Positions 17,273-37,262 of a stretch of 64,000 nt of DNA are shown here, in pieces. Each line of letters starts with the position of its first letter. The stretch's first letter is position 1. Source of the stretch: Flavobacteriaceae bacterium (GTDB lineage Bacteria; Bacteroidota; Bacteroidia; Flavobacteriales; Flavobacteriaceae). The position numbers were made by a program, and so were the translations under genes. Under the pieces are notes generated by a model. It was not told the DNA's origin. It saw only the letters and a program-made list of their open reading frames with translations, and did not search any database. The DNA lies in contig JASJDL010000001.1 in NCBI GenBank assembly GCA_030065775.1, forward strand, positions 687 through 64,686. Reading direction: 5' to 3'.

Positions 17273-17275
17273 GCC

Positions 17276-17836: not shown

Positions 17837-17884
17837 AATTTAGTTTTGGAACTACAAAAGAACATAATTTCATATAAATAGTAT

Positions 17885-17898
17885 GTAACTTTTATTAC
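17885..17898 (-). promoter_or_regulatory. GTAAC-N4-GTTAC box upstream of the yeeE/yedE pair (one mismatch)
   Basis: GTAACTTTTATTAC; -7-like TTCTTTTG on the minus strand at 17855-17862, offset 30. Confidence 0.7.
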
Positions 17899-17900
17899 AT

Positions 17901-17937
17901 AAAAAAGGCCGACTATAGAAAATAGCTGACCTTTTTT
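17901..17937 (-). terminator. Probable terminator after sqr
   Basis: AAAAAAGG-CCGACTAT/ATAGCTGA-CCTTTTTT imperfect hairpin with A/T tails. Confidence 0.55.
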
Positions 17938-17962
17938 AAAACCAAACCAAACCTAACTATAG

Positions 17963-19210
17963 TTATACGTCCTTTCCCTTCAACATTTTATTCCAGTAGA
18001 GGTAGGGAAGCATATATTTTTTCAGGATCCACAATCTCCAGTGCTCTTTAGAAGAATCAGAAATAAGCATTCGTTTCAATTTTGGGTCGGGGGTAAAATT
18101 TCCATCGTAATCGAATTCAGCTAAGACCATTTTTCCATAATCTGTGACCAAAGGACATGAAGAATAACCATTATAAGCCATATTTCCTTTTTTAGCATGT
18201 TCAATTAATAAGGAAATATTGTCAACTGCTACGGGTACCTGTTTTCGGATAGCAGCGCCCGTTTTTGCAGTAGGTAAACCACAGACATCGCCTAGACCAA
18301 AAATATTGCTATATTTCTTATGTTGCATGGTATATTGATCTACATCAAGCCATTTAGCATCATTTACCAAGGGTGATTCTTGTATAAACTTAGGTGCCAC
18401 TGAAGGTGGGGCAGTATGCAACATATCATAGTGGATGCCAATAAGATCGCCATCTTTTGATATTTTAATGTCTTTGGAGTTTACTTCTGACTGGTTATCA
18501 CCTAAAGCATACCAGGCTATTTTATTTTCTCCATCTATTTTTTTCAACTGGTGCCCGAAGCGTAGATGCGTATCTTTTTTAGTATTTACTTCCATTAAGG
18601 TTTTCTTAATCTCGGGTATTCCAAAGATGACACCACCGCTCGTGGCAAACACAACGTTACTTTGTTTTCTGACACCGCTTTTTCTAAAATGACTTTCAGC
18701 CAGATACATTATTTTTTGTGGGGCTCCACCACATTTTATAGGGGTAGTGGGTTGTGTAAATAGTGCAGTTCCGCCTTTGAAATTCTTAATCACATTCCAG
18801 GCGTGTTTAGGATCGGTATAAACACTGCAGACAACACCTTTATCCATAGCTTCGCCTAATCCGGGCACCAAAGAATAGTCATATACCAAACCCGGGGCAA
18901 CTACCAAATAATCATAAGTATGGTCACCACTTGATTTGGTTGAAACAGTATTCTTTTCAGGATCAAAAGCGGTTGCATAATCTTTAATCCAGTGTACTCC
19001 TCTGGGCATTACACTAGCCATTGGTTTGGCGGTTTTATCAAAATTATAGGTGCCAGCTCCTACCAAGGTCCAGGCGGGCTGGTAGTAATGTGTGTCCGCT
19101 GGTTCTATAAGTCCGATACTATATTTCTTATTTTTTTTCAATAATTGAGCGGCGGCCATAATACCGGCCGTTCCTCCTCCTATGATCAATACTTGATGAT
19201 GAGAACTCAT
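17963..19210 (-). CDS. sqr: Sulfide:quinone oxidoreductase, type II
   Basis: GGGTAG FAD motif, HYYQP.WT.VG.G, KCGGAPQK, KTGAA and YSSCPLVT redox-Cys motifs, AEFDY. Confidence 0.92.
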   Translation of the reverse strand: MSSHHQVLIIGGGTAGIMAAAQLLKKNKKYSIGLIEPADTHYYQPAWTLVGAGTYNFDKTAKPMASVMPRGVHWIKDYATAFDPEKNTVSTKSSGDHTYDYLVVAPGLVYDYSLVPGLGEAMDKGVVCSVYTDPKHAWNVIKNFKGGTALFTQPTTPIKCGGAPQKIMYLAESHFRKSGVRKQSNVVFATSGGVIFGIPEIKKTLMEVNTKKDTHLRFGHQLKKIDGENKIAWYALGDNQSEVNSKDIKISKDGDLIGIHYDMLHTAPPSVAPKFIQESPLVNDAKWLDVDQYTMQHKKYSNIFGLGDVCGLPTAKTGAAIRKQVPVAVDNISLLIEHAKKGNMAYNGYSSCPLVTDYGKMVLAEFDYDGNFTPDPKLKRMLISDSSKEHWRLWILKKYMLPYLYWNKMLKGKDV

Positions 19211-19266
19211 GACAAGCTGAATTAGTGTTAATACTCTAAATGTAAAATTTTATGGTATGTTCTACA

Positions 19267-19280
19267 GTAACTTTTGTTAC
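19267..19280 (-). promoter_or_regulatory. GTAAC-N4-GTTAC box upstream of sqr
   Basis: GTAACTTTTGTTAC; -7-like TACATTTA at 19237-19244 (minus strand), offset 30. Confidence 0.85.
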
Positions 19281-19318
19281 AGAAGATAAAGACATCAAAA
19301 CAGATGATTTTCATTCAG

Positions 19319-19522
19319 CTACTTGGTTTTACAAGTATTCAGGCCAACTACGGCATATAGCGGACAAAAACTTATGAAGCTTGTTACTACAAATATTGCA
19401 GCTAAAGCGATAAGAATGTAAGCCAGGGTTCCTCCAATAATATTTTGGTAATACAATATGCCAATTACCACTGCAATAAGGATTCTGATTATGCGGTCTG
19501 CACCGCCCATATTTTTTTTCAT
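19319..19522 (-). CDS. DUF2892 (YgaP-like) small membrane protein
   Basis: MKKNMG..DR.IR ... FCPLY...G.NTC signature. Confidence 0.92.
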   Translation of the reverse strand: MKKNMGGADRIIRILIAVVIGILYYQNIIGGTLAYILIALAAIFVVTSFISFCPLYAVVGLNTCKTK

Positions 19523-19536
19523 AATTTAAAGTTTTA

Positions 19537-19626
19537 TCAGTTGAGTAAAAGTACAGCACCAGTTACAATACCTATACATAGTATACATACAATCAGTAAC
19601 TTAATAATTTTCTTGTTATTCATCAT
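19537..19626 (-). CDS. Candidate leaderless 29-aa single-TM peptide with CxxC
   Basis: Translates as MMNNKKIIKLLIVCILCIGIVTGAVLLLN*; starts 4 nt after the -7 element TATTTTTG and ends 14 nt before DUF2892. Confidence 0.5.
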   Translation of the reverse strand: MMNNKKIIKLLIVCILCIGIVTGAVLLLN

Positions 19627-19660
19627 AGTCAAAAATAAACGAGTGATTTAAGAATAAGTA

Positions 19661-19672
19661 TGATAATTATCA
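19661..19672 (-). promoter_or_regulatory. TGAT-N4-ATCA (FNR-like) box upstream of the small ORF/DUF2892
   Basis: TGATAATTATCA perfect palindrome; -7 TATTTTTG at 19630-19637. Confidence 0.75.
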
Positions 19673-19688
19673 CAAAATTTAGATCATA

Positions 19689-21128
19689 TTAAGATTTCAC
19701 CTTTTTCTTAAAAGTATAACTAAACCCTGCCATGATCATTGATGTAGTCATATCATAGGATACTTCTGAGCCGGGAATCTGTCCTAATGGGTTCGTTGTG
19801 GCATCCCAGGGCCCGTCCGGAAATCCATCCTCATTAAAATCGACTGCCGGTACAGGGCTCAAAAGAGGCCCCGCGGTGGAACCACCACTTGTTCCAAAAT
19901 GAAAAACGGCATCAAAAGATAAATTGTCCGTTGCTTTATAGCTTAAACCAAATTGAAATGCATTTTTGATAATTGCGGTTGCAGGAGTATTAAAGAATGC
20001 CAATTCGTCCTTAATTGGGTTTGAGCTATAGGTGTATCCTACACGCAGTGGTACTTTATCAATACCCTTATATTGAAGGCCTGCTGAAACAACGGAAATA
20101 CTTTCCCATCCAAATCCATTGACGGCACCTGTTGGAAATCCTTGAAAAGGACCACTTTGGGCTATTTGCCAACCACTGGATTCAAAACCATCCGTATTTT
20201 CGTAATCGATGAATCGATAGTCTAAGGCCAGATCTATATCACCCTTGGAATACCCAAATCCTAGAGAATAAATGGCAGGATAATCTAAATTAAATGATAC
20301 ATTCGGTGCCGAGGTTTGGCCTGGATCTAAATAGGTATTTTCGAAATCAAAATCTCCAAAGAATTGTGTAGTCTTATAGGACGCACCGGCACTGAAACCC
20401 GATCCTGAATCATAAAATATCCCTATCTGCCCACCAAAACCTATAGCATTTGCTTTGTCACTCATTGGATATCCTAAAGTCTGACTTGGCACTGCCAAAG
20501 GGTTCGGTTGAATTTCTAAAGTTGCATAGTCAACAGTTGGCTGGATACCTATGGAAAATTTATCTGATAGTTCATAGGCCCATGTAAAACCTACTTGTAA
20601 TAAAATGTAGTCTGATTCTATTCTTCCGAAGCCCATGGCTGCTTGCGGGTAATTTATGGGGTTAGAATTCATCGTAGGGTTAAAGTTTGCATTTAAAGGA
20701 TGGTTTGGTTCTTGGGGGAAGGTGACACCAAACCCGGCAATACCGAAAGCCGAGGCACCAAATGCATGTTTGCTTCCTTCTTTGCTCCATACATAAGCTA
20801 AAGCCGGTAAAGGTGACAGACCTCTATCATCTTTTGTTACACCACGTACCGCCGGGGCACCAGGCCCTAATAGACCGGCAGGTAACGAGGATGATAATTC
20901 AGGTGAAGAAAAGAATAAACCCAAATCAAATTTCAACGTGCTTTCATCAAAAGCTGAAATTGAAGCCGGGTTCCATTGTAGTGCTCCTGAGATATCAAGA
21001 GGTTGGCCAGTGGCTGCGCCACCCATAGACATGTTTACAGAACCAACACCTTGCATAACATGACCTGTCTGGCCAGTCAAAATCCAAGGCATAACAATTA
21101 AAACAATTAAAAAAAGTCTTGTTTTCAT
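19689..21128 (-). CDS. OmpP1/FadL/TodX family outer-membrane channel
   Basis: Signal peptide, SMGGA.T......AL.WNPA hatch motif, LRVGYTY, C-terminal beta-strand FSYTF. Confidence 0.88.
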   Translation of the reverse strand: MKTRLFLIVLIVMPWILTGQTGHVMQGVGSVNMSMGGAATGQPLDISGALQWNPASISAFDESTLKFDLGLFFSSPELSSSLPAGLLGPGAPAVRGVTKDDRGLSPLPALAYVWSKEGSKHAFGASAFGIAGFGVTFPQEPNHPLNANFNPTMNSNPINYPQAAMGFGRIESDYILLQVGFTWAYELSDKFSIGIQPTVDYATLEIQPNPLAVPSQTLGYPMSDKANAIGFGGQIGIFYDSGSGFSAGASYKTTQFFGDFDFENTYLDPGQTSAPNVSFNLDYPAIYSLGFGYSKGDIDLALDYRFIDYENTDGFESSGWQIAQSGPFQGFPTGAVNGFGWESISVVSAGLQYKGIDKVPLRVGYTYSSNPIKDELAFFNTPATAIIKNAFQFGLSYKATDNLSFDAVFHFGTSGGSTAGPLLSPVPAVDFNEDGFPDGPWDATTNPLGQIPGSEVSYDMTTSMIMAGFSYTFKKKVKS

Positions 21129-21164
21129 AGAAAATTATTTATGTTATGAGAAATTTATTTTCAT

Positions 21165-21194
21165 AAAAAAATCCAAGAGATCTTAACTCCCGGA
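21165..21194 (-). terminator. Terminator-like hairpin inside the fadL-like leader
   Basis: Minus strand TCCGGGAG-TTAAGAT-CTCTTGGA-TTTTTTT. Confidence 0.5.
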
Positions 21195-21261
21195 ATTTGA
21201 TAATCTGATGTTTTCATTTCATATTTTACTCAAAATTACCGCATTGTCCCTGCATGAATAA

Positions 21262-21273
21262 TGATAATTATCA
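21262..21273 (-). promoter_or_regulatory. TGAT-N4-ATCA (FNR-like) box, proximal fadL-like promoter
   Basis: TGATAATTATCA, identical to the 19661 copy; -7 TAATTTTG at 21231-21238 with the same offset. Confidence 0.75.
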
Positions 21274-21329
21274 GGTCTATGTCTGATTTGGATTCATACC
21301 AAATCTAATCTATGGAATTGAAAAGTTTT

Positions 21330-21343
21330 GTAACTTAAGTTAC
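21330..21343 (-). promoter_or_regulatory. GTAAC-N4-GTTAC box, distal fadL-like promoter
   Basis: TGTAACTTAAGTTACA perfect palindrome; -7 TAGATTTG at 21300-21307, offset 30. Confidence 0.88.
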
Positions 21344-21353
21344 ACAGGATGAG

Positions 21354-21986
21354 CTACTTTCTTTGGAAAACCGTATAAATATAAGGACGCGGCGAAGCGG
21401 AGGGGGTGAGATGCGTATAATTCAAATATTTGATAAGCTTGAAATCATTACCAATTTTCTCTTGAAGCAACCTATGATCATATTGCTGGATTTCTAATCC
21501 ACTGCATTTCTTTGCTCCTTCTTTAGAAAATATCCCTATTAGTGCATAGCCTCCAGGCTTAACCAATTTATTTACTGATTTAAAGTAGGAATCTTGTTCT
21601 TCTTTCTTTGTAAGGAAGTGTAACATAGCGCGATCTTGCCAAAGATCAACAGGCTCTAGTAAGTGAAGTTTTTTGGGTTTTGTTAAATCATCAACCAGAA
21701 AGGATACATTTTTTGCACGCTGCTGCAAGCGCTCCTTTAATAATTTCATGGCTATTGTACTAATATCGATAGCAGTTATATTTGAGTATCCGGCATCTAA
21801 CAACTCATCGATCAAGGTACTTGCCCCGGCACCTACGCTTAGTATATGTGCATTTTTTTCTAAGCGTAAATTTTGAATAAGTTTTAAAGAAACATTGGAG
21901 GTCTTCTCATACCAGCCCAGCTCATGCAGGGCTTTGCTTTCGTAGGCTTCGTCCCAATGCTTTTGTAGGTCAATTTCAACAGTCAT
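21354..21986 (-). CDS. Class I SAM-dependent methyltransferase
   Basis: HWDEAY, VGAGAS motif I, DIS, WQDRAMLHFL, GAKKCSGL. Confidence 0.88.
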   Translation of the reverse strand: MTVEIDLQKHWDEAYESKALHELGWYEKTSNVSLKLIQNLRLEKNAHILSVGAGASTLIDELLDAGYSNITAIDISTIAMKLLKERLQQRAKNVSFLVDDLTKPKKLHLLEPVDLWQDRAMLHFLTKKEEQDSYFKSVNKLVKPGGYALIGIFSKEGAKKCSGLEIQQYDHRLLQEKIGNDFKLIKYLNYTHLTPSASPRPYIYTVFQRK

Positions 21987-22015
21987 TCTTATAGTCTCAT
22001 TCTTTATATAGTAAA

Positions 22016-22041
22016 ATGAGTAACCGCTGAAGGTTACTCAT
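22016..22041. terminator. Hairpin between the PDO-rhodanese gene and the methyltransferase
   Basis: ATGAGTAACC-GCTGAA-GGTTACTCAT 10-bp stem, with a short T-run on the minus strand. Confidence 0.6.
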
Positions 22042-22068
22042 TATGATATGCTAATTTTTTTACATAGT

Positions 22069-23478
22069 TTACAATGTGCTTGGACACACGTAATCAGTCA
22101 TTTCTACACCAGCTTCTTTCATTGCTTTATACCCACCGGCCACATCAATTATATTATGAATTCCTCTGCTTTTCAGGATAGATGCTGCTACAATGCTTCT
22201 GTAGCCGCTAGCACAATGCACATAGAAATTTTCTTTATCGGGAAATTCCGCTAAATGATCATTTAAGAAGTCGAGAGGTGTATTATTGGCGTCAACCACA
22301 TGCTCTGACTGAAATTCTCCTTTTTTACGTACATCAAATACTTTTATTTTTTCTGCGTCCATGGCTTCTTTGAAAGCATCCGCCGAAATAGACGTTAGTG
22401 TATCATATTCTTTTGAGGCGTTTTTCCATGACTTAAAACCACCTTTTAAATAACCTAATGTGTTGTCAAAACCAACTCGGGAGAGTCTGGTAACAGCTTC
22501 TTCTTCTCTTCCTTCAGGAGTCACAAGTAAAATGGGTTGCTGCACATCGGCTATTAATGCGCCCACCCAGGGGGCGAAACTTCCGTCAAGGCCTATGAAA
22601 ATGGATCTTGGAATATGTCCTTCTGTGAATTCAGTTTTGCCACGTACATCCAAAACCACGGCATCTGTTTCATTGGCGGCTGCCTCAAAAGCATCTGGTG
22701 ATAATGCCTGTGTACCGCGCTTGATGACCTCATCAATATCAGCATATCCTTCTTTATTCATTTTGACATTTAATGGAAAATATGCTGGTGGCGGTAACAA
22801 GCCTTCCGTTACTTCTTCAATAAATTCTTCCCGCGTCATGTTTGCACGAAGGGCATAATTAGTTTTTTTCTGATTACCTAAAGTATCAACTGTTTCCTTA
22901 CTTAGGTTTTTACCGCATGCTGAACCGGCTCCATGCGCTGGATATACGATGACATCATCGGCTAACGGCATAATTTTAGAGCGCAGGCTGTCGAATAAAG
23001 TACCAGCCAATTCCTCTTGGGTCATATCGGCAGCTTTTTGAGCGAGATCGGGTCTTCCCACATCACCTAAAAATAGAGTATCTCCACTAAAAATCGCATG
23101 ATCTTTACCATCCTTATCTCGTAATAAATACGTAGTACTTTCCATGGTATGGCCTGGGGTATGTAGTGTAACAATCGTACTATCTCCAAGTTTAAATTCC
23201 TGACCGTCTTTCGCTATAATCGCGTCAAAACTAGGGTTCGCATTTGGACCATAAATAATAGGTGCACCTGTCTCCTTCGATAAAGTAACATGACCACTTA
23301 CAAAATCGGCATGAAAATGTGTTTCGAAGACATATTTGATAGTGGCATTGTTCTTTCTTGCCTTATCAATATATGGTTTTACTTCTCGTAAAGGGTCTAT
23401 GATGGCCACTTCACCATTACTTTCAATATAATAAGCACCCTGAGCGAGGCAACCGGTATAAATCTGTTCTATGTTCAT
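22069..23478 (-). CDS. MBL-fold persulfide dioxygenase fused to two rhodanese domains (CstB-like), copy 1
   Basis: ETHFHADFVSG, HTPGHT, GDTLF.GDVGRPDL, HGAGSACG, C-terminal rhodanese HCASGYRS. Confidence 0.9.
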   Translation of the reverse strand: MNIEQIYTGCLAQGAYYIESNGEVAIIDPLREVKPYIDKARKNNATIKYVFETHFHADFVSGHVTLSKETGAPIIYGPNANPSFDAIIAKDGQEFKLGDSTIVTLHTPGHTMESTTYLLRDKDGKDHAIFSGDTLFLGDVGRPDLAQKAADMTQEELAGTLFDSLRSKIMPLADDVIVYPAHGAGSACGKNLSKETVDTLGNQKKTNYALRANMTREEFIEEVTEGLLPPPAYFPLNVKMNKEGYADIDEVIKRGTQALSPDAFEAAANETDAVVLDVRGKTEFTEGHIPRSIFIGLDGSFAPWVGALIADVQQPILLVTPEGREEEAVTRLSRVGFDNTLGYLKGGFKSWKNASKEYDTLTSISADAFKEAMDAEKIKVFDVRKKGEFQSEHVVDANNTPLDFLNDHLAEFPDKENFYVHCASGYRSIVAASILKSRGIHNIIDVAGGYKAMKEAGVEMTDYVCPSTL

Positions 23479-23534
23479 TATTCTTTATGCTTTAATTCTA
23501 GTGACAAAAATACTATAATAGATTTTTTGTATCA

Positions 23535-23548
23535 GTAACCAAAGTTAC
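23535..23548 (-). promoter_or_regulatory. GTAAC-N4-GTTAC box upstream of PDO-rhodanese copy 1
   Basis: GTAACCAAAGTTAC; -7 TATTTTTG at 23505-23512, offset 30. Confidence 0.88.
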
Positions 23549-23619
23549 ATAGGTTTATTCAATACCTGACTCAATACGATTAATTGCATTGGGCCAGGTT
23601 TACTGATTCACCGCAAAAA

Positions 23620-25032
23620 TTATAACATTGTGGTGGGGCAAATATACTCAGATTTTGGTACTGAAGTTTCTTTGATTTCGTCGAATCCTTCAGTGATATC
23701 TTTTATATCCTGCCAACCCCTTTGTTTTAAAATGGATAAAGCGATCATACTCCTGTAACCACTTCGGCAATGAAGGATAATTGGTTTATCTTTGGGTAGC
23801 TCAGCCAGGTGTTTATTGATCTCATTTAATGGAATATTGTAAGCACCTTCGACATGTTGTGAGTCATATTCACTTTTCTTACGAACATCAAAAACCAAAA
23901 GATCTTTAGTAAACATTTTTTCAAATTCTTTAACGCTTATTCTTCCAACAGTTTCAATTTCTTTACCTGCATTTTTCCAAGTATCAAACCCTCCTTTTAG
24001 GTAACCAATGGTGTGATCATAACCAACTCGGGATAAACGTGTAATAGCTTCTTCTTCTTTACCAGGATATGTTATCAACAAGATTTCTTGTTTCACATCA
24101 GGAATCATCTCACCTACCCACTGGGCGAAATTACCATCTAACCCAATATTGATACTGTTTGGAACGAATCCTTTAGCGAAGTCATCAGCATCTCTGGTGT
24201 CTAAGACCAAAGCGCCTGTTTCGTTAGCGGCAGCATCAAAAGCATCTGGGCTAAACAAATGACTTGCTCTGGTCATGACGGTATCCAGGCTGTCATATCC
24301 TTTTATGTTCATTAATACATTTTGAGGAAAGTATCCCGGAGGCGCTGTTAAACCAGTTAATAACTCTTCAATAAATTCCTCTTTAGTCATGTCTGCCCTC
24401 AACGCATAATTTACCTCTTTTTGATGGCCTAAAGTATCTGTGGTTTCTTTACTCATCATTTTACCACAAGCCGAACCGGCACCATGGTTAGGATACACGA
24501 TTAAATCATCACTTAAAGGCATAATTTTAGTTCTTAAGGAATCATATAAATGCCCTGCGAGTTTTCGCTCTGTAAGATCAGAAACAACATGCTGCGCAAG
24601 GTCAGGACGCCCTACGTCACCGATAAATAAGGTGTCACCTGTAATGATACCGTGTTCCTGATCATTTTCATCAATTAATAAGTATGTTGTACTTTCCATG
24701 GTATGCCCAGGAGTATGTATTACTTTGACTTTGTAATTACCGACATTAAAAATCTGGCCGTCTTTTGCAACTGTGGCTTCATAGCCTGGTTTAGCAGTTG
24801 GTCCAAAAACAATTTCAGCTCCGCTCTTTTTTCTTAGATCCAGGTGCCCACTTACAAAATCTGCGTGGAAATGTGTTTCAAAAACATATTTTATCTCTGC
24901 ATTATCAATTTGTGCTCTGTCAATGTAAGGTTGTACCTCACGTAAAGGGTCGAAAACCGCTGCCTCACCATTATTCTCTATATAATATGCGGCGTGCGCT
25001 AAACATCCGGTATAAATTTGTTCTACTTTCAT
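23620..25032 (-). CDS. MBL-fold persulfide dioxygenase fused to two rhodanese domains (CstB-like), copy 2
   Basis: Same motifs as copy 1; rhodanese loop HCRSGYRS; ATG at 25032 (MKVEQIYTGCL) by homology to copy 1. Confidence 0.9.
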   Translation of the reverse strand: MKVEQIYTGCLAHAAYYIENNGEAAVFDPLREVQPYIDRAQIDNAEIKYVFETHFHADFVSGHLDLRKKSGAEIVFGPTAKPGYEATVAKDGQIFNVGNYKVKVIHTPGHTMESTTYLLIDENDQEHGIITGDTLFIGDVGRPDLAQHVVSDLTERKLAGHLYDSLRTKIMPLSDDLIVYPNHGAGSACGKMMSKETTDTLGHQKEVNYALRADMTKEEFIEELLTGLTAPPGYFPQNVLMNIKGYDSLDTVMTRASHLFSPDAFDAAANETGALVLDTRDADDFAKGFVPNSINIGLDGNFAQWVGEMIPDVKQEILLITYPGKEEEAITRLSRVGYDHTIGYLKGGFDTWKNAGKEIETVGRISVKEFEKMFTKDLLVFDVRKKSEYDSQHVEGAYNIPLNEINKHLAELPKDKPIILHCRSGYRSMIALSILKQRGWQDIKDITEGFDEIKETSVPKSEYICPTTML

Positions 25033-25089
25033 TTTTATTTTTTTAAAAATTATATCTACGAAAGTTACCAGCAATTATTATTATATACA

Positions 25090-25103
25090 GTAACTTTAGT
25101 TAC
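25090..25103 (-). promoter_or_regulatory. GTAAC-N4-GTTAC box upstream of PDO-rhodanese copy 2
   Basis: GTAACTTTAGTTAC; -7-like TAACTTTC at 25060-25067, offset 30. Confidence 0.87.
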
Positions 25104-25129
25104 ATTCCAAAGAAGAGTAAAACAAAATG

Positions 25130-26878
25130 CTATTTATTGGTCTGCCGAATGTATTTGTGGAATTTATCGGGCTTTTCCTTCCCTTCTTTCATGATTGAAT
25201 AGGCGTCAACTGCTTCCTGAATACTCATGAAACAATTATCGTAACCCAGAATGTTCATTACACCCCCTTTGTCTAGGGCATCCCTTACGGGGCCTTTAAT
25301 TCCTGAAAACACCACTTGAATGTTCTGACCACCGTAATATTCTAAGACTTCAATTAAGGTATGAACACCGGTACTATCAATGGTATTCATACTTTCGCAA
25401 TCAATAATAATGAGTTGGAGCGCCGGACCTTTTTCTACCACTAATTCCTCTAATGTATCTTTAAAAAAAGTAGTGTTTGCGAAATATAATTGGGCATCAA
25501 ACCGTACGATCAAAATATCATCTTTTACGATTACATCCTTACCAAAGCGTTCTACATTTCTATAAAAATGTGTCCCATGTATGTTTGCCAATACCGCCAC
25601 ATGTGGCCTGGTGGTTTTCAGAATGACCATGACTAAAGAAAGAATGACACCCACACCAATTCCTTTTTCGATACCAAGAGTTAAGGTAGCGAAAAAAGTG
25701 GCAAGCAGCAGAAAGAAATCAGTTCTATTGCTTTTCCACAAGTACAACACTTCCTTATAATCGATCAGCCCGAAAACAGCCACCATGATAACCGCAGCCA
25801 GAATTGATTTTGGAAGATTGTGAAAATAAGGCGTTAAAAATAAAAGTGTTATTACAATAAGGATGGCACTGACGACTGATGCCATAGTTGTTTTAGCGCC
25901 AGCCTGATCACTTACGGCTGTCCTTGAAAATCCACCTGTCGTAGGATAGGATTGAAAAAAAGAACCTATGATATTGGCCAGACCTAATCCTATCAATTCC
26001 TGGTTTGGTACCACTTTGTAGTCTCTGTGTTTTAATTGGATCGCCTTCGCCACAGCGATGCTTTCCATAAAACTGACGAATGCAATGGTAGCAGCCATTG
26101 GTAAAAGTATATTTATGACCTTTAGATCAAACGAAGGAATGCTAAAACCTGGTAATGAACTGGGGATTTCACCAACGATCTTAACAGGATTGTTCCCCTG
26201 ATTGAGCCCAAAAATAGATACGGCTAATATTCCAAATACAACAGCAAGTAGTTGACTCGGAAAACCTTTCTTTATTTTTTTAGATAGTATTATAATCAAG
26301 ATTCCAATACTTCCAATTCCAAAGGATATCCAGTTAATTTCATCGAATTTACTAATTGCATTCAACAAAATCTCATGGATATGGTGTGACCTTGGTATGT
26401 CTATGCCCAATAAACTTTTTAACTGACTAAGCCCAATAATGAGGGCTGCCGCTGATGTAAAGCCACTTATGACCGGGTGAGAGAGAAAATTGACCAGAAA
26501 ACCAAGCTTGAAAATCCCTAATAGAAACTGAATGGCACCTACTAGAAAAGCTAAAATGATCGCATACATAATGTATTGTTCTATTGTAATGCCTTCAAAT
26601 GAGCTAATGGCTGTGGCCGTTAATAAGGATACCATAGCTACGGGCCCAACAGCAAGTTGTCTGGAGGTGCCAAGTAGCGCATAAATTAATAAAGGAACAA
26701 TCGAAGCGTACAAACCATAAACTTCAGGTAGACCGGCAATGGAAGCATAGGCCATACCTTGCGGAATCAACATAATACCAACTGTTAACCCGGCGCCAAT
26801 ATCGCCTTTCAGCCAACTTCTCTTATAATTGGGGGCCCATTCTAAAACTGGCAGTATCGATTTCAACGAAATTTTCAT
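25130..26878 (-). CDS. SulP/SLC26 anion transporter with STAS domain
   Basis: IPQGMAYA...GLP..YGLY, GGFSRTAV, LYFAN, IDSTG. Confidence 0.93.
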   Translation of the reverse strand: MKISLKSILPVLEWAPNYKRSWLKGDIGAGLTVGIMLIPQGMAYASIAGLPEVYGLYASIVPLLIYALLGTSRQLAVGPVAMVSLLTATAISSFEGITIEQYIMYAIILAFLVGAIQFLLGIFKLGFLVNFLSHPVISGFTSAAALIIGLSQLKSLLGIDIPRSHHIHEILLNAISKFDEINWISFGIGSIGILIIILSKKIKKGFPSQLLAVVFGILAVSIFGLNQGNNPVKIVGEIPSSLPGFSIPSFDLKVINILLPMAATIAFVSFMESIAVAKAIQLKHRDYKVVPNQELIGLGLANIIGSFFQSYPTTGGFSRTAVSDQAGAKTTMASVVSAILIVITLLFLTPYFHNLPKSILAAVIMVAVFGLIDYKEVLYLWKSNRTDFFLLLATFFATLTLGIEKGIGVGVILSLVMVILKTTRPHVAVLANIHGTHFYRNVERFGKDVIVKDDILIVRFDAQLYFANTTFFKDTLEELVVEKGPALQLIIIDCESMNTIDSTGVHTLIEVLEYYGGQNIQVVFSGIKGPVRDALDKGGVMNILGYDNCFMSIQEAVDAYSIMKEGKEKPDKFHKYIRQTNK

Positions 26879-26936
26879 GAATTAATTTGTAAGGAATTCT
26901 CGATGGCAAAGATACTCCTAAACAGAGTTATTATTT

Positions 26937-26950
26937 GTAACTATTGTTAC
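26937..26950 (-). promoter_or_regulatory. GTAAC-N4-GTTAC box upstream of SulP
   Basis: GTAACTATTGTTAC; -7 TATCTTTG at 26907-26914, offset 30. Confidence 0.88.
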
Positions 26951-26957
26951 TTGCTAT

Positions 26958-28682
26958 TCAAAGGACCTCATGGCACTCTTTAAATGCCTTTTTAGTACAG
27001 GGTTGTTTTAGTTGGTTATGAATTGCTATAATCGCACTTCTTTTATCCTTAAAGAAGATGTGTTCACCTACACGTTTCTTGAAGCCTCCGGTTTCCAGCA
27101 CATCCTGACTTACGAGTTTTAGTCCTGCGATATAAATCCCACCACGATGTTCTTTCCACTTGAGCATTTCATAGGTTAACCATTCTGCAGCAGCCAAGTC
27201 AATGAAATTTATGCCGTCAGCGGCAATGAGTACATAGTCAATTTTATTTTCATCGTATAAGTTCGCAAAAAAGTCTGCAATTTTTTCAATAGACCCAAAA
27301 TATAGTGATCCGTCAATGCGCACGATTTTCATACTCGAACACTCTTTTGCTTCCGAATCTCGAATGGTATTTACCAAGCGTCCCTTCTCATCTAGTGCTA
27401 AAATGGCGATGTTCGGTTTGGAGGTTCTTTCAAGATAAAAGAAGAATGAAGTAATGATTCCGGCCAATAATGCAAATTCGAGATCAAAGAAAAGCGTTCC
27501 AACCAGTGTAACTGTTAAGACGATAACTTCCTTACCACTACTTTTGTATACTTGTTTTATATGATGAAAATCTATAAGATTATAACCAACAAGAAGAATA
27601 ATTCCACCCATGGTCGCCTTTGGTAAATATGCTGCATAACCTGCCAGTGTTAGTACCACAGCCATTAGTAAAATGGAGGCGAAGATTGCTGCCATTGGGG
27701 TTTTGGCCCCGGCTTGATGATTCACGCCAGAGCGCGTGAAGGAGCCTGATCCGGCATAACTTGAAAAGAAACTAGCTATTAAATTAGAGAGTCCTTGACC
27801 GATAAATTCTTGATTACCATCAATTTTTTGATGTGTTTTTAAGGCAATTGCCCGTCCTATCGCAACGGCTTCTATAAGCCCGAGCAGTGCAAGTACCATC
27901 GCTCCCGAGCTTAATTTCTGAACATTTTCAATAGTCAATTCAGGAATTCTGAATGGAGGCAGGTTTGAAGGCACATTACCAACAGTTTCAATCCCTTGTT
28001 GTTCCCCGCCCATTAACAGTGCTAAAACACTTCCCAATACCATGGCGATCAACATATAATATCGCGAAAGCGGTTTTATAAGGTGCTTAATTACTAAAGC
28101 TACCAGTAAAGTGCCTATAGCCACAATAAAAACATTCCAATTCGTGCTTGATATATTTTCGGCTATATGGGTAATGATCTCCAAAATGGTACTTCCCTGA
28201 GGAACTTTAATGGCAAATACATGGCTTAATTGTTTGAATGCGATGAGTATACCGGCCCCTGCGGTAAATCCTATAATCACTGAATGTGAAACGAAATTTA
28301 CAAGCTTGCCCATTTTCATTAACCCCATCAAAAATTGGAAAAGACCAGTAAGAAAAGTTAAAACCAGGGCCATTGAAACAAACATTTCAACATCACTTTC
28401 GGGGTTTAGATTCAATTTTACGAGTGTAGCATATACAACGATTGAAATAGCTGTAGTTGGCCCGGAAATTAAATGATAAGATGAGCCAAATAAAGCAGCG
28501 ATGATAGGAGTGATCATAGCAGTATAAAAACCATAAATTGGAGGGAGGCCTGCAATTATGGCGAAAGCTACAGCTTGTGGAATTACAATAACTGTTCCGG
28601 TAATGCCAGCAATCAGATCATCTTTCCATGTGGTTTTGACTTTTGGAAGCCATAACAGAAAAGGAAACAGTTTACTAAGCAT
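26958..28682 (-). CDS. SulP/SLC26 anion transporter with STAS domain (in the molybdoenzyme operon)
   Basis: IPQAVAFA.IAGLPP.YG, SGSFTRSGVN, GSLYFG, INFIDL. Confidence 0.93.
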   Translation of the reverse strand: MLSKLFPFLLWLPKVKTTWKDDLIAGITGTVIVIPQAVAFAIIAGLPPIYGFYTAMITPIIAALFGSSYHLISGPTTAISIVVYATLVKLNLNPESDVEMFVSMALVLTFLTGLFQFLMGLMKMGKLVNFVSHSVIIGFTAGAGILIAFKQLSHVFAIKVPQGSTILEIITHIAENISSTNWNVFIVAIGTLLVALVIKHLIKPLSRYYMLIAMVLGSVLALLMGGEQQGIETVGNVPSNLPPFRIPELTIENVQKLSSGAMVLALLGLIEAVAIGRAIALKTHQKIDGNQEFIGQGLSNLIASFFSSYAGSGSFTRSGVNHQAGAKTPMAAIFASILLMAVVLTLAGYAAYLPKATMGGIILLVGYNLIDFHHIKQVYKSSGKEVIVLTVTLVGTLFFDLEFALLAGIITSFFFYLERTSKPNIAILALDEKGRLVNTIRDSEAKECSSMKIVRIDGSLYFGSIEKIADFFANLYDENKIDYVLIAADGINFIDLAAAEWLTYEMLKWKEHRGGIYIAGLKLVSQDVLETGGFKKRVGEHIFFKDKRSAIIAIHNQLKQPCTKKAFKECHEVL

Positions 28683-28746
28683 TCACAAATGTATTGATTC
28701 TATGATTTGATTGAAAATGAAATCCCGCTTAAGCGGGAAGATCATT

Positions 28747-31656
28747 TTAATTAGTATCACTTATAAAATAGCATCCACCTTCTATTTTATCGGGCGTAAA
28801 TGCTCTTTTAAACCATAATGGACGTCGTTCACCATTAGGTCCGGGGGCAGGTCGAGTCATTGATAGCCATTCTTTATAAATCTCATGTGATTTATTAGTA
28901 TCTACAACTATGTCACCGTAGTTTTCGTTAGGCCCGGGCTTCTCAATTCGAACACGCTGATGCCAGCAATGCATACCACTAATGGGGTCGGGATGTACGG
29001 CATGCGTGATATTTTGGTGTACACCACCATCTTTCCAAAAGATACGTTTCGAATCACTATCTTCAGATTCAAATGGTTGTATTCCCGAAAGCGTATTCAT
29101 ATGCCATTTACCTTGTCCGTCATTTTCAATATTAACAGTATTAGTGGCCCATCTATTTCCTATTTTATCTTGTGTTCTTCGCCATCTTCCTATGTGATGT
29201 GAGCAGGCAACTACACCTGGTTTCATACTTTGAGTCACCCATACTTTATCAATGAAGTAGCCAATATCTGTATTCATTTTGACTAAGTCCCCTGTTTTAA
29301 ATCCCCATTTAGCCGCGTCTTCCGGATGCATCCAGATCGGATTTCTATTGGAGATCTCCACCAGCCATTTGGCATTTCCCGATCGTGTATGAATTAAAGT
29401 TGGTAACCTGAAGGTAGGTACTAACACGTATTCACCTTTAGATTTGTCCAGGTGATCACTATGAATATGGCTTTTTATGTATTGGGGAATCGCATATTCG
29501 GGCCATTTCCAATCAACCATGGTTTGTGAATAGAATTCATTTTTTCTGGAAGGAGTAGGAAAGCCAACAACCGCCTTTCCTTTGATTAACACGCCAATAG
29601 CTTTTCCTTCTTTATAAACTACATCGGTTTTTTTATCGATAGTTGAACCTTCGAGCTGTTGCTCTGTTAATAGGGTTTCATTTACTTTATAAGACTCTCC
29701 CTGTTCTATTTCATAGGCTCCATATTTTTGCATATAGTTCAACTCTGCAAAAGGACCGGTAAAGCCATCAGCTTTAGCTGCTTCTGGTAGACCATTTACC
29801 CGTTCAAAAATGTATTGATAGTATTCTTCAATGGTGATTTTTTCTCCAGGCCGGTAAGGTGATTCAAAATGTTTACGGATACCCATACTGCCGTCTGGAT
29901 CAATGCGCCACGAAAGTTCAATCCAAAATTCATCTTCCTCCCAAACTTCTCCCGGATTTGCCTGGTAAGTATATTCAACAGGATTTCCATTTCTACGGGC
30001 AGCTTCCCTGAGCACGGGTTGCCTAAAGGCCACCCAGGTTCCACCATGTGTAGCATAGGAGTTGATGTCATGTCGCTCTGAAGCTAAGCCCATGGGTAGT
30101 ACAAAATCTGCATAAAAAGCCGTTTCATTCCAGGTGGGTGTCAAGGCGGCATGCACGCCGAATTTATCTTCATCAGTTAATTGTTCAATCCATGTAAATC
30201 CGTCGGGATAGGTCCATACAGGATTAAATACCCTTGTAAAATAAACATCCATTTTACCACGGCCTTCCTTGAGAAAATGAGGTAATAACTGACTCATTTC
30301 AAAAAAGGCGAGTGGGTACTCTCTTGGGAAATGTAGCTCATTCCACTTTTTATGAGGTTCAGGAGGATTTGGTTGTGTAGGGCTAAACTTATTCCATGAA
30401 TTCGGTGAAGTACCCCCTTTTGTACCTACAGCGCCGGTTAATACTGTTAAGAAATGTAAGCATCGTGCGACACACCAGCCCCCTAAATTTGATGCTCCAG
30501 CAGCGCGCCAGTTATGTGATGCGAATCGCTCTCCGGCTTTGCCAATTTCTCTGGCTATTTCTATGATTGTCGAAGCCTTAACACCAGATTCTTTTTCGGC
30601 AAATTCAGGCGTAAATTCTTTATATTCTTCGATCATCGAACTTATGTAGTTCTCAAAAGTCACTTTTTTCTTCGGATGCCTGGCCTCCAAATATTCCTTC
30701 CAATTTGTCCAATTTTCTAGATATTCTCTATTGTATAGCCCTTCTTTTAGAATGATTACTGCCATAGCCAATAAAACGGCAGCCTCGGTTCCGGGATAAG
30801 TGGGAAGCCAATAATCAGACATTGAAGCCGTATTTGATAATCTTGGGTCCATCGTGGCCAGCTTGGCGCCTTTCATTTTGCCTTCAATGATGCGTTGTGC
30901 ATGCGGATTAAAATAATGCCCAGACTCTAAGTGGGCAGATACCAATAAGATGAATTGGGCATTGGCATGGTCTGGTGATGGGCGATCGTAACCATACCAT
31001 ATATTATAGCCGAATCGCGCTCCCGATGAACAAATATTGGTATGCGAATTGTGACCATCGATTCCCCATCCTTGTAAAATCCAGTTCATGAATTTTTCAT
31101 GCCCTGGACGCCCAACATGGTATGCAACTTCGTTATGACGATCTTCTTTGATGGCTTTTCTAATTCTTGTTGAAAGCGTATCCAATACTTCATCCCATGT
31201 TACCCGTTCCCATTCGCCATCACCTCTTTTTCCTTTTCGTTTTAGAGGGAATAATATCCGGTCGGGATCTTTAATTTGATTGATTGTCGCGGGCCCTTTA
31301 GCGCAATTCCTGCCTCGACTTCCGGGATGATGAGGATTCCCCTCAAATTTCTTGACTTCCTGGGTTTCTTTCTCAATAAATGCTGTTAAGCCACAAGCAC
31401 TCTCGCAATTAAAACAAGTAGTCGGTACGATCTGATAGGTCTTTTTAACCTTTTTTGGCCATGCTTTGGGATCGTATTCGATCCAATTATCCCAGGTCTC
31501 AGGAGAGGGAAAATTTTCATACATTTCTGCGATTTCTTCATCGCTAAATTTCCGCATGTCTTGATCAGTCTCCTGGCGATTATCTTTGTGTAGATTTGGA
31601 ATGACCCCTAACTTTTCTGCTATGTTTTCGATGAATGAAGGTTTTTTATATCCCAT
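28747..31656 (-). CDS. Molybdopterin (bis-MGD, DMSO reductase family) oxidoreductase catalytic subunit, Psr/Soe/Arr-like, no Tat signal
   Basis: TTCFNCESAC...NCAKG FS0 cluster, DPDRILFPLKR.G.RG.G.WERVTWDE, SHTNICS putative Cys ligand, ETA.YAD.VLP, MHPEDA..G..GD.V; no RRxF motif. Confidence 0.9.
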   Translation of the reverse strand: MGYKKPSFIENIAEKLGVIPNLHKDNRQETDQDMRKFSDEEIAEMYENFPSPETWDNWIEYDPKAWPKKVKKTYQIVPTTCFNCESACGLTAFIEKETQEVKKFEGNPHHPGSRGRNCAKGPATINQIKDPDRILFPLKRKGKRGDGEWERVTWDEVLDTLSTRIRKAIKEDRHNEVAYHVGRPGHEKFMNWILQGWGIDGHNSHTNICSSGARFGYNIWYGYDRPSPDHANAQFILLVSAHLESGHYFNPHAQRIIEGKMKGAKLATMDPRLSNTASMSDYWLPTYPGTEAAVLLAMAVIILKEGLYNREYLENWTNWKEYLEARHPKKKVTFENYISSMIEEYKEFTPEFAEKESGVKASTIIEIAREIGKAGERFASHNWRAAGASNLGGWCVARCLHFLTVLTGAVGTKGGTSPNSWNKFSPTQPNPPEPHKKWNELHFPREYPLAFFEMSQLLPHFLKEGRGKMDVYFTRVFNPVWTYPDGFTWIEQLTDEDKFGVHAALTPTWNETAFYADFVLPMGLASERHDINSYATHGGTWVAFRQPVLREAARRNGNPVEYTYQANPGEVWEEDEFWIELSWRIDPDGSMGIRKHFESPYRPGEKITIEEYYQYIFERVNGLPEAAKADGFTGPFAELNYMQKYGAYEIEQGESYKVNETLLTEQQLEGSTIDKKTDVVYKEGKAIGVLIKGKAVVGFPTPSRKNEFYSQTMVDWKWPEYAIPQYIKSHIHSDHLDKSKGEYVLVPTFRLPTLIHTRSGNAKWLVEISNRNPIWMHPEDAAKWGFKTGDLVKMNTDIGYFIDKVWVTQSMKPGVVACSHHIGRWRRTQDKIGNRWATNTVNIENDGQGKWHMNTLSGIQPFESEDSDSKRIFWKDGGVHQNITHAVHPDPISGMHCWHQRVRIEKPGPNENYGDIVVDTNKSHEIYKEWLSMTRPAPGPNGERRPLWFKRAFTPDKIEGGCYFISDTN

Positions 31657-31668
31657 TTTAATGAAGTA

Positions 31669-33285
31669 TTAAGCGAGTGGTATTCTTTGAGGTGCTTCAA
31701 CCCAAATTTTTTCTGTAAAATAAATTCCTAAGAATATCGATAAAGCAGCAAGTGTTAACGTTGCTGTTGTAGGTTGGATGAATAGCAATACCAATGGTAG
31801 CACGTTACCTATTATAAGGGATCCCACCCAAAACAATGTTTTATACCTACCTGATGTGATCATTTTAACGACACTTTTTGCAGCAGTAGTAGCGTGTGTG
31901 GTTGTTAGTTCTGTTATCAACGTAAAAAGATTTACTAATAAGGCCCCAATTAAAATTGGCTTTAAGATTAGCATCCAGGATTCACTTCCTGCAATAAACC
32001 CGATGAAAATAAAGACAGCAGCACCCGCCATGATACTATGAACTAACATGTGTAGCACGAGTGAAGGACTTTGCCAGAAATCCCTTCCTTTGGCCTGAGC
32101 GAAAAGAAACGCTGTATATGTTGCTAAAAGAACTGCAAAAACTGCAGTGACCCATAGCAAGGGTTTTTCAGGGATCGTCCAATTAAAATAGGTGGCCGCC
32201 CCCCATAATGTTACCAGTAGTCCAAAGATGGTAATGGTATAGCCTCCTTTCACCAACCATGAGTTCCATTGCGGCCGTAATAAGACATATAAAAATCTGT
32301 CGGGCCTGTCTAAATCTAGAACTAGAAATAATCCTGTTAAAGCCAAAAAGAACAAAGAAACACCTACTGACCATAATTTGGTCGTGTCAGATAAATCATA
32401 TCCAACTAATAGGGCCACAAAAGGAATTAAAAAAGTCCCGGCAGCAATAGCTTTTGTAATGACATAGGCTATTACCTCCCAACCCCATAATATACCTTTA
32501 TCAGGAGTATCATAGACTCTTCTTGCCGAACCATTTAATACGTCAATATAATTTGGATTTTCAGACTCCTTTCGTTGGTAAGCTGCTTCGATTTCATTGT
32601 CTATGGATAGCTGCAACAAATCAATATCATCATTCGTATTGATCATTTTTTCGGCTGCTTTGGCGAAATGGCCAACGCCCCTTGCCTGGGAATTCCAAAG
32701 TCCGGGCCCGGACGGATGTGTAGCTTCAGGATTTAAAGAAGCCTCATCACCGTCTATGTAGTATAAATTTGGATGTGTACCTTTTTCGGGTTTTCTAACC
32801 TTAACCTGCTGCCGCGCCAATAATTGTGAAATTTCGGTTTGTGGATTTTCCATATCGCCTGCAATTATTGCATGTTCAGGGCAAACACTTACACAGGCAG
32901 GCTCCCGGCCAACATCAACGCGATGTGCACAATAGTTACACTTTGCAGCTGTGTGGGTTTCAGGATCAATATATAGGGCATCATACGGACAAGCTTGCAT
33001 ACACGATTTACACCCGATACATCTGTCATTGTCGAAGTCTACGATGCCATCATCTCTGACATATAAGGCCTCTACAGGGCAAATTTCCACACATGGGGCA
33101 TCAGTACAATGATTGCACCGCATTACCGAAAATATTCTTCGGGTATTTGGAAATTGACCTTTTTCTACTTGTTTTACATACGTACGATTAACTCCTACAG
33201 GAACATCATGCTCGGATTTACAGGCTGTAGTACAGGCATGACAACCGATACACTTTCGATTGTCAATTATAAATCCATATTTCAT
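31669..33285 (-). CDS. Fused 4x[4Fe-4S] ferredoxin (NrfC/PsrB-like) and NrfD/PsrC-like 8-TM anchor
   Basis: CIGCHACTTAC, CNHC..APC..ICP, CIGCKSC..ACP and CNYC...PAC...CP motifs, then WG..V..Y, DLDRPDRF and about 8 TM helices. Confidence 0.92.
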   Translation of the reverse strand: MKYGFIIDNRKCIGCHACTTACKSEHDVPVGVNRTYVKQVEKGQFPNTRRIFSVMRCNHCTDAPCVEICPVEALYVRDDGIVDFDNDRCIGCKSCMQACPYDALYIDPETHTAAKCNYCAHRVDVGREPACVSVCPEHAIIAGDMENPQTEISQLLARQQVKVRKPEKGTHPNLYYIDGDEASLNPEATHPSGPGLWNSQARGVGHFAKAAEKMINTNDDIDLLQLSIDNEIEAAYQRKESENPNYIDVLNGSARRVYDTPDKGILWGWEVIAYVITKAIAAGTFLIPFVALLVGYDLSDTTKLWSVGVSLFFLALTGLFLVLDLDRPDRFLYVLLRPQWNSWLVKGGYTITIFGLLVTLWGAATYFNWTIPEKPLLWVTAVFAVLLATYTAFLFAQAKGRDFWQSPSLVLHMLVHSIMAGAAVFIFIGFIAGSESWMLILKPILIGALLVNLFTLITELTTTHATTAAKSVVKMITSGRYKTLFWVGSLIIGNVLPLVLLFIQPTTATLTLAALSIFLGIYFTEKIWVEAPQRIPLA

Positions 33286-33366
33286 ATTGGCAATTTATTA
33301 GTTACTATTGGTTGAATTAAAATTGAATAAGACTTTAAATATAGACAGAAAAACACCAATGGATAA

Positions 33367-33380
33367 GTAACAAAAGTTAC
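33367..33380 (-). promoter_or_regulatory. GTAAC-N4-GTTAC box upstream of the molybdoenzyme operon
   Basis: GTAACAAAAGTTAC; -7-like TATATTTA at 33336-33343, offset 31. Confidence 0.85.
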
Positions 33381-36261: not shown

Positions 36262-36272
36262 AAACAAAAAAA

Positions 36273-37097: not shown

Positions 37098-37262
37098 TAT
37101 GTTTAATATTATTAATTAATAATTAAACAAAAATTTAACAAGTTCATTGAAAATTTGGAACAATATCAATAATTAATTTAAGAATAAATAAATTTTAAAT
37201 TTATAGTGCTATTTTGGTCTTTTGATTATTTTTAGGATCAAATTCAAATCAAACAGGACTAT

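Follow-up and report, generated by a model that had tools for sequence, protein, structure and literature searches.

Why should one short palindrome, GTAAC-N4-GTTAC, stand at the same distance ahead of unit after unit in a cluster of sulfur genes? The question is raised by a 64-kb stretch of DNA from a marine Flavobacteriaceae bacterium (contig JASJDL010000001.1; the whole stretch is called the window here), in which an island of ~14 kb carries at its head a single gene of the Crp/Fnr family (33439-34074). The explanation that we favour, and that as a whole we hold to be rather likely from the comparative sequence evidence, is that the palindrome would be the operator of this regulator, that the regulator would act as a class II activator, that the genes behind the boxes would form a sulfide/persulfide detoxification regulon, and that sulfane sulfur would be the signal.

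Exact copies of GTAAC-N4-GTTAC occur six times in the window, at 19267, 21330, 23535, 25090, 26937 and 33367. Dinucleotide-preserving shuffles of the window give an expectation of 0.03 exact copies, and none of 100 shuffles reached six. A previous reading of the letters alone (the sequence-only reading) had listed seven copies; the six just named are exact, and the seventh, at 17885, is a near-copy with one mismatch. Because the one-mismatch class has no significance by itself (the shuffles give a mean of 1.12), the copy at 17885 rests on its geometry and on the orthologous YeeE promoters in named Flavobacteriaceae loci, which bear exact boxes. No further copy is present anywhere else in the window, as the sequence-only reading had found by eye for the flanking DNA.

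All seven boxes face minus-strand promoters. Read on that strand, the order is box, spacer and an octamer of the TAnnTTT[GAC] type; the spacer between box and octamer measures 22 nt at six boxes and 23 nt at 33367, and the distance from the box to the 3' base of the octamer is 30 nt, or 31 nt at 33367. The same distances had been proposed before, and they are exact at all seven positions. The accompanying statement that a TAnnTTT(G/A/C)-like -7 element is found throughout holds for six boxes and fails at 17885, where the -7-like element, TTCTTTTG, does not begin with TA. The published consensus of Bacteroidota promoters is TTG-N17-23-TAnnTTTG (bioRxiv 10.1101/172254), and in marine flavobacteria the -7 box is the promoter element that is conserved. 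From the regulator end of the island, and in minus-strand reading, box 7 (GTAACTTTTGTTAC, 33367-33380) is followed after its 23-nt spacer by the -7 element TATATTTA (33336-33343). The others all have the 22-nt spacer: box 6 (GTAACAATAGTTAC, 26937-26950) with TATCTTTG (26907-26914), box 5 (GTAACTAAAGTTAC, 25090-25103) with TAACTTTC (25060-25067), box 4 (GTAACTTTGGTTAC, 23535-23548) with TATTTTTG (23505-23512), box 3 (GTAACTTAAGTTAC, 21330-21343) with TAGATTTG (21300-21307), box 2 (GTAACAAAAGTTAC, 19267-19280) with TACATTTA (19237-19244), and the mismatched box 1 (GTAATAAAAGTTAC, 17885-17898) with its -7-like element at 17855-17862. The start codon lies 18-50 nt past the octamer, with the exception of the fadL-like gene behind box 3, which has a leader of 171 nt.

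In the genome assembly as a whole (2.84 Mb, 80% complete, 37.7% G+C), the bare word is not enriched. Exact copies number 8, compared with 11 of the reversed word; with up to one mismatch allowed there are 72, compared with 208 of the reversed control, and genome-wide enrichment of the word was rejected on these counts. The non-random features are the clustering and the promoter position, not the word frequency: six of the eight exact copies lie inside the island at the promoter offset, and seven of the eight are 29-31 nt from a -7 element. Only two exact copies are found outside the window, both on contig C92, one within a coding frame (C92:12346) and one intergenic (C92:16047-16060, locus L008). 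The intergenic copy is 29 nt from TAACTTTG and lies ahead of a gene for a DUF983 protein of 148 amino acids with CxxC motifs (C92:15555-16001, minus strand). As DUF983 is a recurrent boxed gene elsewhere, this copy counts as an eighth promoter of the same set.

Of the 150 genomes sampled from the family, 120 have an orthologue of the regulator, with 45-83% identity; orthologues also occur in named Tamlana, Litoribaculum, Dokdonia, Polaribacter, Aequorivita, Bizionia, Tenacibaculum, Maribacter and other genomes. The conservation set consisted of 80 named Flavobacteriaceae loci around such orthologues (1.37 Mb), in which 194 exact boxes were counted, as opposed to 2 copies of the reversed control word. 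When each box was measured to any strict TAnnTTTG on either side, the histogram showed a single spike of 98 boxes at exactly 30 nt, the range of 8-70 nt being otherwise nearly empty. This offset is thus kept by 98 of the 194 boxes with the strict -7 element, a number that rises to 152 once TAnnTTT[GAC] is admitted. Class I sites were considered for a small peak at 60 nt and rejected, as this peak comes from a single orthologous promoter in which another -7-like element lies further downstream. The profile of the 152 promoters extends the site to T-GTAAC-N3T-GTTAC (equal to TGTAA-N6-TTACA), with a T-G on the promoter side, at -34/-33, in about two thirds of them, and the next 20 nt are unconserved. 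A TTG -33 element is found in 7 of the 152 and is missing in 145. Since box and offset are conserved and the spacers are not, the promoters are maintained by selection for the box and its phase and are not copies of one another. Copied promoter cassettes were rejected on the same ground, the spacer sequences being unrelated both in the window and among the 152 promoters. Chance was rejected through the shuffles in the window, together with the count of 194 against 2 and the 30-nt spike in the 80 loci.

The target list was drawn up from the first gene behind each box with the right geometry (187 sites, counted as loci). It is headed by the TauE sulfite exporter (40 loci) and the fusion of persulfide dioxygenase (PDO) with rhodanese (39), followed by the regulator gene itself (13), DUF983 (12 of the 80 loci, which makes it a conserved member of the regulon), a small rhodanese (9), and sulfide:quinone oxidoreductase (SQR), SulP and a cytochrome c/Tll0287 protein (7 each). 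A 1-Cys peroxiredoxin, a fatty-acid hydroxylase and a fused molybdoenzyme BC subunit are boxed in 5 loci each, YeeE in 4, a TolC-like protein in 3 and CydA in 1. Across the 150 genomes, the combination of box, 22 nt and TAnnTTT is present in 105 of the 120 with an orthologue of the regulator and in 3 of the 30 without one, and reversed-pattern controls are near zero. As related genomes are not independent, this co-occurrence should be read as a strong association, with no formal probability attached. Together with the same box at the same offset before orthologous sulfur genes in dozens of genera, it bears out the earlier proposal that these genes form one co-regulated system.

The regulator (P0001; 33439-34074, minus strand) is a protein of 211 amino acids that belongs to the Crp/Fnr superfamily: it matches the Pfam domains cNMP_binding (PF00027) and HTH_Crp_2 (PF13545) above the cut-offs, and its AlphaFold2 (AF2) model, with a predicted local distance difference test score (pLDDT) of 87.4, matches the folds of 3dv8 (template modelling score, TM, 0.82), CAP-DNA (TM 0.77) and NtcA. 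Its recognition helix is S-R182-V-V-V-S-R187, and the orthologues have the form S-R-V-V-[IV]-S-R with R182-V183...R187 invariant; Val183 is invariant in both orthologue alignments (n=35 and n=27). RVVVSR aligns with RVTVTR of NtcA and RETVGR of CRP. The only cysteines of the protein, Cys77, Cys83 and Cys84, form a Cys77-x5-Cys83-Cys84 loop that is aligned with residues 70 and 76-77 of CRP, part of its cassette for binding the phosphate of cyclic AMP (cAMP), and this loop is the sole low-confidence part of the AF2 model. Neither Cys77 nor Cys83 varies in other families and classes, down to 45% identity, and Met79 is likewise invariant in the 27-sequence alignment, which has the same depth. Cys84 is present in 33 of 35 sequences of the close set, in 27 of 27 of the other alignment and also in distant loci. 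Both invariant cysteines recur in 3dv8 of Eubacterium rectale, the solved structure most closely related, and in the R-E clade described next. Residues of the cAMP-binding type and the N-terminal cysteine cluster of FNR are both absent from the sequence of the regulator.

A sister clade of the regulator in other Bacteroidota families (loci L179-L181 and L183-L232) combines the helix S-R-E-[VA]-[IV]-[ST]-R with a Cys-x5-Cys pocket. Beside its members stand GTGAC-N4-GTCAC boxes at the same 22-nt offset, with fewer boxes per locus. In CRP, the base pair preferred at position 7 of the half-site depends on residue 181, as is known from CRP E181 mutants. When regulator neighbourhoods were scanned at the class II offset for palindromes of perfect 5-N4-5 form, 50 GTAAC boxes against 1 GTGAC box were found beside R-V regulators, and 0 against 4 beside R-E regulators, where hybrid boxes occur too. 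The pairing of Val with A and of Glu with G matches the residue-181 rule of CRP. In most loci a box is found no more than a few tens of bases from the stop codon of the regulator gene, and in 13 a box lies upstream of that gene. The more distant orthologues of the family labelled f28 (~47% identity) still have the R-V helix together with the TCAMSLACC pocket, and no exact box-promoter of the flavobacterial form was found in five f28 genomes (G178, G258, G270, G341 and G393), so that the operator or the promoter layout there must differ.

That the palindrome is the operator of the regulator encoded at 33439-34074, and that a sulfur regulon lies behind it, we regard on this evidence as highly probable. 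Two observations pull the other way: 15 of the 120 orthologue-bearing genomes are without an exact box-promoter, and the regulator gene of the window has no upstream box, so that autoregulation is not universal. The genome encodes two other full Crp-type paralogues, one of which (C42:328-999, locus L140) has an R-P recognition helix, SRPTLN, the signature of HcpR2; with Pro at the CRP-181 position it resembles a group whose predicted site is the same word, and it might read the boxes instead. However, paralogues of this C42 type occur in just 43 of the 150 genomes, and their presence is unrelated to the box-promoters, which are found in 29 of the 43 genomes with and in 79 of the 107 without one; on this phylogenetic profile the C42 protein was rejected as the reader. 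The boxes, for their part, adjoin the R-V regulator in most loci, and the type of box switches with the helix residue of the regulator family. A -35 element of an alternative sigma factor is suggested by the fact that -35 elements of the extracytoplasmic function (ECF) type include AAC, but here neither half-site varies, and the element that comes next is a canonical housekeeping -7. With chance excluded, and with spacers too different for recent copies, another paralogue, a chance cluster, copied cassettes and an alternative sigma factor seem to us, even when taken together, very improbable. As to the mode of action, the proposal of a class II-like activator site is supported by the fixed offset in 98-152 of the 194 boxes and by the presence of a -33 TTG in only 7 of 152 promoters. 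In Bacteroidota promoters the element TAnnTTTG is numbered -12 to -5, and with this numbering the box would span -48 to -35, with its centre at -41.5. We consider it likely, from promoter architecture, that the regulator is an activator of the class II type. The spacing is rigid to the single nucleotide across genera, as is typical of activators that touch RNA polymerase; a proper -33 element, whose contact an activator would replace, is nearly absent; and the boxes that stand ahead of the regulator gene in other loci have the same geometry. The same operator and regulator might also act as a repressor on the -33 region, released by cysteine modification as in CstR, SqrR and BigR, and several points speak for this and against activation. 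The assignment to -41.5 hinges on the numbering of the -7 element, which is taken from established knowledge of Bacteroidota promoters, the box abuts or overlaps the -33 position, and the T-G at -34/-33 may be a working, if weak, remnant of a -33 element, which would allow basal transcription and with it repression. Dedicated sulfane-sulfur sensors are, moreover, mostly repressors (review PMC13467558), among the well-studied ones all but FisR. Repressor sites, however, usually wander, as do the repressor-type PSOS motifs in Chlorobaculum (bioRxiv 10.1101/172254), whereas the spacing here does not; the TTG is nearly always missing; and NtcA and CRP, the characterised relatives that come closest in helix and site, act as activators from -41.5. 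Repression accordingly appears to us improbable.

Sulfane sulfur, that is, persulfide or polysulfide from sulfide, is in our judgement the most likely signal and a plausible effector, at a chance that we would call even. The regulator probably senses it because the invariant Cys77 and Cys83 occupy what is the cAMP-binding site in CRP, and, given the regulon, sensing through Cys77-Cys83/84, as in CstR, SqrR and FisR, is the most economical reading. Slightly more tentative, and in our view a little short of an even chance, is the broader proposal that this cysteine-pocket Crp protein may be a direct persulfide/polysulfide sensor, a further structural class after those of the CsoR, ArsR and Fis types and the first to act as a class II activator at housekeeping promoters, conserved with its operator in Flavobacteriaceae and with its cysteine motif also in other Bacteroidota and in the GTGAC-reading sister clade. 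A point against a sulfane-sulfur signal is that three cysteines and an invariant Met79 could serve instead to bind an iron-sulfur (Fe-S) cluster, a metal or haem. The operator would then be right and the signal different: the Cys77/Cys83/Cys84/Met79 pocket could hold Fe-S, haem or metal and report oxygen, nitric oxide (NO) or redox state, in the manner of FNR or HcpR, or the signal could be a sulfur oxyanion such as sulfite or thiosulfate. We take this alternative seriously and consider it unlikely. Counting for it is the C-x5-C motif with a third cysteine, which we take to resemble the cluster ligands of Rrf2-type regulators. The cysteine loop is poorly modelled without a ligand, some databases label the orthologues 'anaerobic regulatory protein', and the regulon of some genomes includes cytochrome bd, cytochrome c or the Psr-like respiratory enzyme. 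The NO-linked HcpR2 group, too, has the word of the box as its predicted consensus (PMC1274295). Against this stand the lack of the N-terminal cysteine cluster of the FNR type, the failure to find hcp here or in five distant orthologue-bearing genomes, and the core of the regulon (PDO-rhodanese, TauE, SQR, rhodanese and YeeE), which is that of the CstR, BigR and SqrR gene sets. In addition, a separate FNR-like box, TGAT-N4-ATCA, at the same offset before stress genes suggests that another regulator serves oxygen.

In the mechanism that we propose, the dimeric regulator would bind T-GTAAC-N3T-GTTAC 22 nt upstream of the -7 element, in place of a proper -33 element, and would recruit RNA polymerase to the seven promoters of the island and to the one DUF983 promoter elsewhere. 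The regulon would comprise SQR, two CstB-like PDO-rhodaneses, YeeE, SulP, the FadL-like channel and the Psr-like molybdoenzyme. Sulfide-derived persulfide or polysulfide would modify Cys77, or bridge it with Cys83/84.

Several features of this system recall NtcA of cyanobacteria, which reads GTA-N8-TAC at -41.5 (PMC3898017). The two share the helix pattern R-V-x-V-x-R (RVTVTR in NtcA, RVVVSR here); GTA-N8-TAC is contained in the box; the position of -41.5, which follows here from the -7 numbering, is that of class II; and NtcA is the second-best solved relative of the regulator by sequence and is among its top fold matches. However, identity is only ~22-24%, and the score with the NtcA model TIGR03697 is 42 bits, far from its cut-off of 245. 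The regulator is found in another phylum, at -33/-7 promoters and with a sulfur instead of a nitrogen regulon, and its pocket has Cys77/Cys83/Cys84 where that of NtcA has the ligands of 2-oxoglutarate. The likeness to class II sites of E. coli CRP and FNR is one of fold, of a 16-bp TGTnA-N6-TnACA site and of a centre, inferred to lie at ~-41.5, that replaces the upstream promoter element, whereas the cAMP residues and the FNR cluster are lacking here and the partner would be the Bacteroidota sigma-A with its -33/-7 promoter. FNR in particular differs further, in that its N-terminal cysteines, which together with a central one ligate a [4Fe-4S] cluster, have no counterpart in the regulator, the score with PRK11161 is 22 bits where the cut-off is 228, and its site is TTGAT-N4-ATCAA and not of the GTAAC type.

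HcpR2 is a predicted regulator of hcp in the response to NO and nitrosative stress, has the consensus GTAACnnnnGTTAC and occurs in Bacteroidota (Rodionov et al. 2005, PMC1274295). The operator consensus is identical to that found here, and both proteins are Crp/Fnr-family members that occur in Bacteroidota. They differ in that HcpR2 has Pro at the CRP-181 position, where the regulator has Val, and in that HcpR2 co-occurs with hcp, whereas the regulon here is one of sulfide oxidation. No hcp (Prismane-family) match was found in this 80%-complete genome or in the five near-complete, distant f28 genomes that bear an orthologue. Membership of the HcpR2 group was rejected on account of Val instead of Pro at 181 and of the hcp result.

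By its targets the system resembles CstR (CsoR family), SqrR/BigR/YgaV (ArsR family) and FisR (a sigma-54 activator), which control SQR, PDO-rhodanese, TauE, YeeE/YedE and rhodanese genes (PMC13467558); a YgaP-like protein is encoded nearby as well. Also shared is a conserved cysteine pair, which in sensors of this class becomes joined by a di- or polysulfide upon exposure and thereby switches binding to DNA; its chemistry here is putative. The regulator nevertheless belongs to an unrelated protein family, and it is probably an activator at a housekeeping-sigma promoter and neither a repressor nor a sigma-54 enhancer-binding protein. The sensors listed in reviews of 2022 and 2026 belong to the CsoR, ArsR and Fis families or are secondary ones; none is of the Crp/Fnr type. 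A precedent at the level of the motif comes from a 2017 preprint on Chlorobaculum tepidum, in which a PrfA-like CRP motif, TAAC...GTTA, is predicted upstream of the sulfide-induced psrABC and cydAB and the Crp/Fnr protein CT1719 is proposed as its binder (bioRxiv 10.1101/172254). The type of motif and a Crp/Fnr protein as predicted binder are common to both cases. Unlike the boxes described here, the Chlorobaculum motif lies ~58 nt upstream of the start site, is in some cases tandem, and was reported without a spacer and with a binder that is predicted only. CT1719 was not found in the other Chlorobiaceae examined. We found no published Crp/Fnr-type sulfide sensor, nor a report of this Flavobacteria regulon, in a literature search that covered papers other than those available by subscription only.

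The minus-strand units behind the boxes had been assigned correctly, as judged by Pfam and by matches to solved structures. Behind box 7 lies an operon (26958-33285) of a 4Fe-4S/NrfD fusion (31669-33285), a molybdopterin subunit (28747-31656) and a SulP-STAS transporter (26958-28682), according to Pfam; this last gene has no box of its own and is part of the molybdoenzyme operon. The molybdopterin subunit is Psr/Phs-like, with thiosulfate/polysulfide reductase 2vpw as its closest solved structure, and lies near Psr/thiosulfate reductase and ArrA. Box 6 is followed by a further SulP-STAS anion transporter (25130-26878, Pfam). Box 5 precedes a CstB-like PDO-rhodanese fusion (23620-25032, Pfam Lactamase_B and Rhodanese) and box 4 its tandem paralogue (22069-23478), which has full-length matches to 3tp9 and 3r2u and also matches ETHE1. 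Directly behind this second gene, on its 3' side, is a gene for an S-adenosylmethionine (SAM) methyltransferase (21354-21986, minus strand), and since it has no box of its own, it is probably co-transcribed with the PDO gene. Box-linked methyltransferases of the same kind are seen in two related loci, L048 and L058. Box 3 belongs to the FadL/TodX-like outer-membrane channel (19689-21128, Pfam), the 171-nt leader of which contains a second promoter. SQR of the mitochondrial type (type II), which matches human SQR 6mp5 with an E value of 7e-98, follows box 2 (17963-19210), and a YeeE/YedE-type sulfur transporter split into two halves (17276-17836 and 16859-17272; Pfam Sulf_transp and DUF6691) follows box 1 (16859-17836).

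Between the fadL-like gene and the SQR box, two small genes are placed on the minus strand, neither of them with a GTAAC box: one for a YgaP-like transmembrane protein of 67 amino acids (19319-19522; PF11127, E value 2e-21) and a hydrophobic open reading frame of 29 codons with the motif C-I-L-C (19537-19626). On the plus strand, upstream of the regulator (34681-39140), there are genes for a universal stress protein and for two further permeases of the SulP family, all of them without a GTAAC box; the window thus has four SulP-family genes within 14 kb. The window also contains a second palindrome, TGATAATTATCA, of the FNR-like form TGAT-N4-ATCA, at 19661-19672 and 21262-21273, each 31 nt from a TAnnTTTG; written as ATGAT-N4-ATCAT, it has the same class II offset as the GTAAC boxes. 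One copy lies ahead of the 29-codon frame and the YgaP-like gene, and the other marks the second, proximal promoter of the fadL-like gene. Five exact copies exist genome-wide. In related loci, the genes that have boxes of this form ahead of them at the class II offset encode Usp-like proteins, a membrane protein of 260 amino acids, a candidate for a small heat-shock-type protein and a protein of 840 amino acids. These sites suggest a separate FNR-like stress regulon that would overlap the island.

Bacteroidota are abundant in sulfidic marine particles, sediments and guts, and to our knowledge the regulators that sense sulfide and persulfide come from three families, none described in Bacteroidota. 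The system described here combines known kinds, class II control by a Crp/Fnr protein and a sulfide-stress regulon, and its regulator is a candidate for a new bacterial sulfide/persulfide sensor. With a defined operator, a regulator, two invariant cysteines and a clean list of targets, the regulon is a concrete and widely conserved candidate. It is also among the clearest computational cases in which the class II geometry of Crp/Fnr proteins is carried unchanged to the -33/-7 promoters of Bacteroidota, a case that helps to read other regulons of this phylum. Finally, the box flags several poorly understood genes, those for DUF983, the FadL-like channel, the fused Psr-like molybdoenzyme and the methyltransferase, for a part in sulfur detoxification.

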